A DNA stretch of 64,000 nucleotides from Solirubrobacteraceae bacterium (GTDB lineage: Bacteria; Actinomycetota; Thermoleophilia; Solirubrobacterales; Solirubrobacteraceae), in NCBI GenBank assembly GCA_035487855.1, contig DATHLT010000005.1, positions 3,338-67,337 on the forward strand, given 5' to 3'. A program made the position numbers and the translations under genes. Below the pieces are notes generated by a model, which saw only the letters and a list, made by a program, of their open reading frames with translations, was not told the DNA's origin and searched no databases. Below, piece after piece: positions 3,955 through 8,082 of the stretch. Position 1 is the first letter of the stretch; each line of letters starts with the position of its first letter.

Positions 3955-4091
3955 GGCAGCGACAATGTAGGGCAAGAACCCACTTAGGGCGGACTAAATC
4001 TGGTTAGGGAAGCCGAACGCGGACGTTGACGTCAGCCCACCGAAGCGAGCTGCAAAAAAACACAGCGGGATGCGGCCTGCGGGGAAGACGC

Positions 4092-4391
4092 TCAGGAGGA
4101 CGGCGAGGCGGGCACGCGCTCCCACGATTCGGGCGCGACGGCCACTTCGGGGAAGTCGAGCTCTGTGCCGCAACGCATGCAGATGGCGTCGTAGATCTTC
4201 ACCACCCGCCCGCAGGTGGGGCACTGTCGGCGCATCTCATCGCGCTCGAAGCGATAGGCGATCGCCGCGAACAGGCCGAAGAACGGGATTGCCCCGGAGA
4301 TGAGGAACCACAAGATGAACGAGCTGCCCTTGATCTTGCCTACGATGCCGCCGGCGAGCCCGAAGCAGGTGGCGATAACGACGTAGGCCAT
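4092..4391 (-). CDS. Small membrane protein with C-terminal zinc ribbon
   Basis: Two hydrophobic helices followed by CPTC...CMRC. Confidence 0.7.
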   Translation of the reverse strand: MAYVVIATCFGLAGGIVGKIKGSSFILWFLISGAIPFFGLFAAIAYRFERDEMRRQCPTCGRVVKIYDAICMRCGTELDFPEVAVAPESWERVPASPSS

Positions 4392-4401
4392 CGCGGCAGG
4401 C

Positions 4402-4599
4402 TTACAAAAGAACGCGCAACGCCCAGATGATCGCGACAATCGCGAGGATCACGGCGACGGTGCCGGCAATCGCGACGGCGATCCCGATCACGATCTTCAG
4501 GAGGATATAGCCCGCAACCAGGACCACGAGCCCGGCCAGGACTGTCTTGCCGATGGAGCGGGAGCTGGCCGAAGACTCATTCATCAGAGAATCATCCAA
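4402..4599 (-). CDS. Small two-helix membrane protein (start may be ATG 4584)
   Basis: 65-aa strongly hydrophobic ORF, co-oriented with the downstream membrane gene. Confidence 0.65.
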   Translation of the reverse strand: MDDSLMNESSASSRSIGKTVLAGLVVLVAGYILLKIVIGIAVAIAGTVAVILAIVAIIWALRVLL

Positions 4600-4608
4600 T
4601 GGTAGCGC

Positions 4609-5140
4609 GGCCCCGGCCTGAGAGCGCCCTACCGCGCGCTCTCAGTAGCTTGGTAGGGCTGCAGAGCCAGCCGATGAAGGACGAAGCGCGGCCGGACAGG
4701 AAGTCCTACCCCTGCCCGGCCGCACCCCGATTGCGCCGGCTGAGGGAAGCCGACACTGTCGATGTGGGAGGAATCGCTATGTACGACCCAGCCAACCGAT
4801 CTCGCGGGCCGTCCGTGCCCGAGCAAGATCGACGCTGCTGACGCCGGCACGCCGACGTCCCGCACCCTGCCCGACACTGGTGAGTTGATAACGGCGGATA
4901 CGCAGCCCGTGACCTGAGCCACCCACCGTCTCCTCGGGCAGCAGAATGAACCGCCGAGGAGAGGAAACGCTTTGGTTTGCTGCCGAACGGTTCATGTCAA
5001 GCATATTGCCGCCGCAGCCGATTCTTGCCTTTGGCCGGAAGTCCAAAATGTGATGTGCCACGGTCTCCTAAGTGGCAAACGCGCTGCACGTCGATGGCGC
5101 CACGGCGCCTAGTAGGTCCGTCAGGCGTGCGGCCGGGGCC
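4609..5140. ncRNA. Candidate large structured RNA, pseudoknot-rich; strand and boundaries uncertain
   Basis: No convincing ORF. Perfect helices: 4618-27/4636-45, 4626-33/4652-59, 4678-82/4703-07, 4688-95/4716-23, 4929-37/4954-62, 4937-43/4978-84, 4946-53/4988-95; terminal inverted repeat 4609-18/5131-40. Confidence 0.45.
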
Positions 5141-5145
5141 ATTGC

Positions 5146-8082
<2,937 letters not shown>

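Follow-up and report, generated by a model that had tools for sequence, protein, structure and literature searches.

The 67 nucleotides between positions 4929 and 4995 of the window (the whole 64,000-nucleotide stretch of contig DATHLT010000005.1, from a Solirubrobacteraceae bacterium, that was analysed here) are, with a probability that we put at about 0.78, the 5′ coding end of a leaderless small-protein gene on the minus strand, with one selected RNA hairpin inside it. A sequence-only reading of this DNA had noticed three mutually crossing helices here (A, B and C), taken the sequence around them to be intergenic, and proposed either a nested double pseudoknot, of the class used by small ribozymes and nuclease-resistant RNAs, or a conformational switch. 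The premise of an intergenic location did not survive our analysis: the stretch comprises codons 1–23 of a protein gene under purifying selection. We propose that this gene has a promoter of its own, with the −10 box 7 nt ahead of the ATG, and that its independent transcription gives an mRNA without a leader. The RNA would be ~310–330 nt long and would end in a covarying hairpin with a C-rich loop followed by a terminator hairpin. In its coding part, selection would keep a single hairpin, with rare codons ending in U or G making up its 5′ arm; the 33 nt before this hairpin would be held less paired than chance coding would leave them, and helix B may provide an alternative partner for the hairpin's inner 3′ strand.

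The crossing helices lie within a conserved small-protein gene

The genetics of Solirubrobacterales, a widespread group of soil actinobacteria, is almost undeveloped. The best relatives of the window's gatB gene come from Solirubrobacteraceae metagenome-assembled genomes (up to 82% identity), and the locus considered here is the 546-nt gap between the gatB stop codon (5146, minus strand) and a 65-codon open reading frame (ORF) for a membrane protein (4599–4402). Comparison of gatB-linked loci with BLASTN and nhmmer showed that positions 5075 to 4685 are conserved, at 70–87% nucleotide identity, between flanks that cannot be aligned. With metagenome loci included, we collected 93 full-length copies of one ~380-nt unit, present at more than 90 Solirubrobacterales loci and made up of promoter-like boxes, an ORF without a Shine-Dalgarno (SD) sequence and, on its 3′ side, a covarying hairpin whose loop is C-rich, followed by a terminator. 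The gene order, gatB followed by the unit, a ~60-aa membrane protein and a ~100-aa protein, is kept even in distant members. The unit is absent from Pfam, NCBIfam and Rfam, a literature search returned no description of the locus, and the small protein gene is previously uncharacterised. The features that bear on the coding region are as follows.

4777–4995, minus strand: 72-codon ORF (MNRSAAN..SPRRFILLPEE..RIRRYQLTSVG..) with a TAG stop at 4779–4777; conserved frame, purifying selection
4988–4995, minus strand: 5′ arm of helix A (AUGAACCG), comprising the start codon, Asn2 and the first two bases of Arg3 (codons 1–3); partner 4946–4953 (Arg15, Phe16 and Ile17; codons 15–17)
4978–4984, minus strand: 5′ arm of helix B (GGCAGCA), in Ser4, Ala5 and Ala6 (codons 4–6); partner 4937–4943 (Leu18, Leu19 and Pro20; codons 18–20)
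4929–4962, minus strand: helix C (5′ arm in codons 12–14, 3′ arm in codons 20–23) in its extended form, hairpin C+, with an outer stem at offsets 34–41/58–65 and an inner stem at 42–45/53–56

In every copy one frame is open from the start at 4995 to the stop at 4777. The start codon is ATG in 80 of 91 sequences and GTG in the other 11, and the product varies from 61 to 80 residues around an invariant core, RRF-LLPE then R-RRY-L--G. The ratio of nonsynonymous to synonymous divergence (dN/dS) is 0.33 in this frame and 1.2 and 1.5 in the two shifted frames; differences fall mostly on third codon positions (0.52, against 0.33 at first and 0.27 at second positions), and insertions and deletions (indels) come in multiples of three within the ORF but not after the stop. 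Over the whole ORF, synonymous divergence equals that of gatB for the same genome pairs. Purifying selection confined to one frame, frame-preserving indels and conserved start and stop codons thus predict a protein-coding small ORF. Elsewhere, gene callers have its homologs as 57 clusters of 'hypothetical protein'; an exhaustive profile search reached only 67 representative clusters, nearly all of 41–124 aa and four longer (241–383 aa), and the protein matched no Pfam or NCBIfam family. AlphaFold2, run with the alignment, returned a mostly disordered model with one helix (pLDDT 62).

Other starts and frames were considered and rejected. The 75-aa form favoured by gene callers begins at an upstream ATG (5004) that lies inside the −10-like box, and an in-frame extension to a GTG at 5061 (94 aa) would run through a spacer that varies at all codon positions, with frame breaks in three homologs (L010, L017 and L019). 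The interval between the −10-like box CAATAT and the ATG cannot be coding, since indels of 1–2 nt there break the upstream frame in several homologs, and for this reason neither 5004 nor 5061 is the start. A +1-frame ORF of 97 codons opens at 4922 on the minus strand, where GAGGAG (4935–4930) stands 7 nt before a GTG that is ATG in ~40% of homologs. Both shifted sense frames have dN/dS above 1, synonymous sites downstream vary freely, and the start is not conserved, the codon being GAT in 36 sequences and GAC in 25. Hairpin C would mask this SD-like GAGGAG; with a frame lacking purifying selection, the ORF is probably no gene. On the plus strand, the ORFs at 4599–4841 and 4972–5112, both of which were scanned and gave no family match, and a 20-codon ORF at 4779 are antisense to conserved structures that depend on G-U pairs in the sense strand.

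Helix C belongs to a selected RNA hairpin

Read on the minus strand, the three helices are perfect Watson–Crick complements, just as the sequence-only reading had described them. Helix A pairs AUGAACCG (4995–4988) with CGGUUCAU (4953–4946; 8 bp), helix B pairs GGCAGCA (4984–4978) with UGCUGCC (4943–4937; 7 bp), and helix C pairs UCUCCUCGG (4962–4954) with CCGAGGAGA (4937–4929; 9 bp). Base 4937 is common to the 3′ strands of B and C (B′ and C′), so these two helices cannot both form at full length. The three make up the sole mutually crossing triple in the window with helices of at least 7 bp and a span of at most 70 nt. Of 300 shuffled windows with dinucleotide composition preserved, 7 contained any such triple and 1 contained one of at least 24 bp; the pattern is thus rare in shuffles, and the resulting p of ~0.003–0.02 per window is, taken alone and in a scan of many windows, weak evidence. 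We regard as more telling a second null in which the encoded protein is kept and its codons are redrawn from the genome's usage. Under this null, helix A arises with a probability of 0.18 and helix B with one of 0.028 (7 bp with wobble) or 0.15 (5-bp core), whereas the probability of the 9-bp helix C is 0.00026.

The energies of the helices in the window are −7.3 (A), −10.2 (B), −14.3 (C) and −18.4 kcal/mol (C+), and in the nested thermodynamic ensemble of the window RNA helix A has a probability of 0.017 and helix B of 0. Single-sequence folding z-scores for the two strands (−1.5 and −1.2) are unremarkable. Across the 91-sequence alignment pairing is kept in 95% of cells for helix A, 95% for the core of C and 73% for B. 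This is sequence conservation and not covariation: double-sided changes affect 0 pairs of helix A, 0–1 of the C core and 2/7 of helix B. When stacks with at least 75% canonical pairs are compared over the 216-nt ORF, A is the sole conserved stack of 8 bp and C the best of 7 bp.

Helix C, formed by CUCCUCGG with CCGAGGAG, is extended inward by GCGG/CUGC to ~12 bp, and the resulting hairpin C+ lies 34–65 nt after the AUG. The inner extension consists of C42-G56, the invariant G43-U55, either G44-C54 or G44-U54, and U45-G53. It leaves C57 bulged and closes a 7-nt loop (4949–4943) that is UUCAUUC in the window and UUCAUCC in most homologs. The ten core pairs, the invariant G-U pair included, are paired in 96% of cells across the 91 sequences. 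The hairpin is most clearly seen in the choice of codons. In its 5′ arm Ser12 is TCT in 46/55 sequences, Pro13 is CCT in 81/87, Arg14 is CGG in 84/91 and Arg15 is CGG in 89/91; further upstream, Ser4 is TCA in 58/68, Ala5 is GCA in 77/78 and Ser11 is TCA in 74/78. These conserved codons account for only 3–19% of their families in the genome. Other residues that are equally invariant (Arg32, Arg34, Arg35, Gly30, Pro31 and Thr39) use their codons freely, the arginines being CGT, CGC or CGG. Synonymous difference is correspondingly depressed, to 0.48 of expectation in codons 11–21 versus 1.20 after codon 22 (Mann-Whitney p = 2e-5). In addition, predicted pairing probabilities depart from the codon-redrawn null in both directions: the stems (offsets 35–45 and 53–64) are more paired (0.7–0.99 versus 0.3–0.9), the loop (offsets 46–52) is much less so (0.06–0.18 versus 0.37–0.64), and offsets 10–23 are likewise less paired than the null. 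We conclude that helix C is part of a genuine RNA hairpin maintained by selection.

It could be argued instead that selection does not act on the nucleic acid at all and that helices A, B and C simply arise when a conserved peptide is encoded with G+C-rich codons. For this protein the first 75 nt do have an ordinary folding energy, helices A and B are fairly likely by chance coding, and the single-sequence z-scores are small. Such an account would nevertheless have to explain why specific rare codons are kept in 80–98% of the 91 homologs when other invariant residues change theirs freely, and why a helix with the chance probability of C is present at all; we consider it highly improbable.

A further alternative is that CCTCGG-N16-CCGAGG, a conserved inverted repeat, functions at the DNA level, where a dimeric regulator would bind it as its operator downstream of the start site, and that the RNA hairpin is incidental. 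The inverted repeat is equally a DNA palindrome, and a second palindrome over the −35-like box (see below) suggests that the unit is regulated. The pattern of substitution is that of RNA, however: a G-U pair in the stem is invariant in 91/91 sequences, another pair alternates between G-C and G-U (66 and 23 sequences), and the pair at offsets 40–59 is G-U instead of G-C in 8 sequences. In a DNA palindrome each of these G-U pairs would be a mismatch. Conservation also extends to the asymmetric inner part and the bulged C. An operator is therefore a very unlikely explanation, and we retain the selected RNA hairpin in what follows.

In several distant homologs (L162–L167, L025 and L053) a hairpin covers the same codons in other registers. 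In L162, for example, GAGGAG is paired with CUCCU from leucine codons, and in L025 CCGGGUC is paired with GACCCGG. These hairpins are suggestive only, since coding RNA of high G+C content folds easily. Synonymous change is also suppressed in a second, smaller patch, at codons 60 and 64–65 (~4818–4799), where Ala60 is GCA in 71/83 sequences, Arg64 is CGC in 66/72 and the observed/expected ratio at Glu65 is 0.24; it may mark another RNA contact.

Helices A and B and the case for a pseudoknot or switch

Helix A is fully paired (8/8) in 75 of 91 homologs and is broken without compensation in ~16. Neither the break made by the AGG codon for Arg3 (11 sequences) nor that made by the CUC codon for Leu17 (14 sequences) is compensated. 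All of its positions are set by Met-Asn-Arg or Arg-Phe-Ile together with preferred codons, except the G of the Arg15 CGG codon, which hairpin C+ needs in any case. The helix therefore follows almost automatically from the codons and has no independent support.

Helix B is a more equivocal case. Its core (offsets 12–16/53–57) ranks first for double-sided changes among the 47 five-bp stacks in the ORF with at least 75% canonical pairs. Wherever position 15 is A (16 sequences, 2–7 events), the pair G15-C54 has been replaced by A15-U54, C16-G53 becomes A16-U53 in 3 sequences and G16-C53 in 2, and the rare GCA codon at Ala5 supplies A14, the partner of U55. On the tree only two of these events are well founded as independent, and the covariation of the single pairs 15-54 and 16-53 is unexceptional (ranks 231 and 753 of 22,578 column pairs). 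The helix is absent in the divergent members L015, L024 and L009. Since B shares its 3′ strand with the inner stem of the hairpin, it is a possible alternative pairing, or a possible pseudoknot stacked on C, and a B/C pseudoknot or switch is to this extent possible. Alternatively, the conserved codons ending in A may serve an open 5′ end rather than helix B.

These observations bear on the idea that two or all three of the helices fold into a functional pseudoknot, or act as a conformational switch, and so toggle translation of the leaderless ORF. In one form B would stack on C through the continuous 3′ strand 53–64; in another, A and C would make an H-type knot that hides the AUG, for which loop lengths of 25, 0 and 8 nt are workable by geometric reasoning. 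The rank of each helix among conserved stacks of its length, the concerted changes at pairs 15-54 and 16-53, and the retention of GCA at Ala5 all speak for such an arrangement. Set against them are the uncompensated breaks in helix A and its 18% probability by chance coding, the modest ranks and few tree events of the pairs in B, and the loss of B from the divergent members. All three helices could not in any case form in full simultaneously, by geometric reasoning, since the linkers among them are only 0–3 nt (A′ directly abuts C and the A′–B′ gap is 2–3 nt) and B′ overlaps C′. We regard a functional pseudoknot or switch as unlikely. What stands of the original suggestion is that C is a conserved, selected hairpin and that B shows some compensatory change; the part assigned to A is unsupported.

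The more specific proposal of a nested double pseudoknot of the small-ribozyme or nuclease-resistant kind fares worse. With twister, hatchet and exonuclease-resistant RNAs (xrRNAs) the element shares only the crossing topology as drawn within ~70 nt; unlike them it sits inside an ORF, two of its three helices lack covariation (A being entirely uncompensated), it has no conserved unpaired core, and its linkers are too short for all helices at once. Rfam cmscan, run over the whole window with the gathering score as cut-off and over 4000–6000 with E ≤ 10, gave no match to covariance models such as twister, pistol, hatchet or xrRNA, nor any other relevant hit, and a scan for tRNA and tmRNA found none. 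Were the 5′ 65 nt nonetheless a true pseudoknot or two-state switch, in which B stacks on C or competes with the inner stem and A may hide the AUG, it could couple translation of the arginine-rich protein to the activity of the C-rich 3′ domain. Although we think this improbable, it would be a dual-function RNA of a new, self-regulating kind, found only in Solirubrobacterales and ranking with the most abundant of their transcripts in soil.

A promoter-like region next to the start codon

We return to the reading of a leaderless gene with a single selected hairpin, for which the sequence upstream of the ORF is of particular interest.

5031–5046, minus strand: operator-like palindrome TTGGAC-N4-GGCCAA (GTCCAA in some homologs); nearly invariant in 91 sequences, 4-nt spacer variable; overlaps the −35-like box
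5026–5031, minus strand: −35-like box AAGGCA, within the conserved block GGCCAAAGGCA
5003–5008, minus strand: −10-like box CAATAT, 7 nt before the ATG; none of the 91 sequences departs from A at its second or T at its sixth position

The order of elements is ACATTTTGGAC-N4-GGCCAAAGGCA, which is nearly invariant, a spacer of constant length (17 nt) and unconstrained sequence, CAATAT, 6–9 variable nucleotides and then ATG or GTG, the distance from CAATAT to the start codon shifting by 1–2 nt through indels. The alignment of 91 sequences contains no SD sequence before the ORF start, and the −10 element lies 6–8 nt before the start codon. This layout is most likely that of a promoter firing at or next to the start codon, that is, of a leaderless mRNA. 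Leaderless mRNAs are common in Actinomycetota (PMC4633059), and one study (PMC8459731) shows start-codon accessibility to be a determinant of leaderless initiation. The palindrome, which in its form TTGGAC-N4-G(G/T)CCAA has a single match in the window, looks like an operator-type site for a regulator.

The unit is represented by an abundant RNA

Public metatranscriptomes contain contigs that match the locus exactly.

4662–4982, minus strand: stretch under exact-match metatranscriptome contigs (abundant RNA), from runs X2 and X3

The contig from run X2 covers 4662–4980 at a depth of 26.4 and that from run X3 covers 4751–4982 at 63.8. Over 4983–5145 there were no RNA contigs and the depth over gatB was 0, whereas other genes of the same organism in the first 20 kb of the window had depths of 2–10. 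The unit thus yields an independent RNA, ~3–25 times more abundant than neighbouring genes in these two soil metatranscriptomes. Pieces of the stretch occur in no fewer than 24 metatranscriptome runs, which sampled soil, peat, permafrost, rhizosphere and roots. The RNA or its relatives were assembled even from very small metatranscriptomes (32–43 million letters) among runs X2–X36, which points to very high expression across the lineage.

The upstream end of the RNA falls within ~15 nt of the ATG. Contig ends at 4980–4982 recur in five runs and are compatible with a start at 4995 without being proof of one; the missing terminal 13–15 nt were presumably lost in library making and assembly. Metatranscriptome contigs carry no strand information, and we infer the sense strand from the ORF and from the dependence of the hairpins on G-U pairs, which are invariant or frequent in all three (C+, H1 and the terminator-like hairpin).

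A conserved 3′ domain that outlives the ORF

Three further elements follow the stop codon.

4764–4773, minus strand: C/U-rich motif UUCCUCCCAC of the 3′ untranslated region (UTR), just after the stop; identical in the closest homologs, variable in the rest, kept in loci without the ORF
4733–4756, minus strand: 3′ UTR hairpin H1, with a nearly invariant loop UUCCCUC(A/G) that resembles an anti-SD sequence
4688–4723, minus strand: 13-bp G+C-rich terminator-like hairpin; 99.8% of cells paired, both-side changes in 5/13 pairs

H1 has both-side changes in 6 of its 8 stem pairs and is paired in 94% of cells. Many pairs of the terminator-like hairpin are G-U, such that it is workable only on the minus strand. 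It has no U tract and was not called by a terminator scan, and one RNA contig extends 26 nt beyond it, to 4662. Two loci, L011 (5483–5690) and L014 (5601–5776), keep the promoter-like region and the 3′ domain and have lost the ORF; in a third, L013 (5600–5693), only the 3′ domain was detected, with no recognisable ORF. What is kept in these loci is the C-rich motif, the hairpin with the loop CUUCCCUC and the terminator. Because three Solirubrobacterales genomes retain the 3′ domain without the ORF, this pattern of conservation suggests that the domain may work as a small RNA (sRNA) in its own right.

Weighing the leaderless-gene reading

Several observations tell against the account given above of a leaderless gene with a selected hairpin. 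A sigma-70 scan did not call the promoter, the boxes of which are below consensus, so the argument for it is one of conservation. The RNA contigs are strandless and end 13–15 nt inside the ORF, which locates the 5′ end only approximately. Hairpin C is almost without compensatory change, the clearest instance being the replacement of U35-A64 by A35-U64 in 3 sequences; such changes are scarce because both arms encode invariant residues. The RNAalifold consensus is weak (−6 kcal/mol), and the folding energy of nt 1–75 is no lower than that of codon-redrawn sequences (mean z −0.2 to −0.3), from which it follows that the evidence supports a specific structure and not extra overall stability. The sequences are related, so that counts overstate their independence. 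The conserved rare codons TCA (Ser4 and Ser11) and GCA (Ala5) are not part of the hairpin, and only an open 5′ end or helix B would account for them. Finally, the function of the hairpin is one that we infer: it would be a cis-acting mRNA element that sets the translation or the lifetime of the leaderless message. It might do so by binding a factor, perhaps the gene's own arginine-rich product, or by forming a barrier to early elongation, and an open 5′ end would leave the terminal AUG accessible to 70S ribosomes.

Relation to known systems

The gene resembles the leaderless small-protein mRNAs of Actinomycetota described in mycobacteria (PMC4633059) in that its predicted start is the start codon, there is no SD sequence, a −10 element lies 6–8 nt upstream and the product is small (72 aa); it also belongs to a phylum in which such messages are common. 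It differs from the mapped mycobacterial examples in that its 5′ end is predicted, a hairpin occupies codons 12–22, the 3′ UTR is long and structured, and the host belongs to the Thermoleophilia (Solirubrobacterales). Local suppression of synonymous change over a stable hairpin, with rare codons kept for the sake of pairing, is shared with other selected mRNA structures in coding regions, although here the structure begins ~35 nt into a leaderless bacterial gene. It therefore offers a clean natural case of RNA structure selected within a leaderless coding sequence and made visible by conserved rare codons. More generally, a gap labelled 'intergenic' that shows a striking pattern of helices can conceal a small gene missed by annotation.

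The unit can also be compared with dual-function sRNAs (reviewed in PMC12612679), which combine a small ORF with a base-pairing domain and are likewise short, abundant transcripts with their own promoter and terminator and a small ORF. Here, too, an independent, abundant short transcript carries a structured, conserved non-coding domain, and this domain is separable, as the ORF-less loci L011 and L014 show by keeping the promoter and the 3′ domain. The covarying hairpin with a conserved C-rich loop resembling an anti-SD sequence further recalls the C-rich-loop sRNAs of actinobacteria (6C/B11). Unlike 6C, the unit has no match to the Rfam 6C family, and its ORF shows far stronger conservation than the ORFs of most dual-function RNAs. 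We regard the RNA as a candidate dual-function RNA.

Sequence downstream of the unit

Beyond the small RNA's terminator, and before the next gene (which starts at 4599), lies a perfect 10-bp hairpin (4618–4627/4636–4645), overlapped by one of 8 bp (4626–4633/4652–4659). This stretch, 4618–4659, is not conserved in the closest relative (L081), and the RNA contig depth is 0 at 4604–4637. Two minus-strand ORFs follow the unit, one for a 65-aa single-pass membrane protein (4402–4599) and one for a 115-aa membrane protein with a weak zinc-ribbon match (4092–4439); neither protein matched a curated family. Small ORFs of ~60 and ~100 aa occupy the same positions in those distant homolog loci that reach that far.

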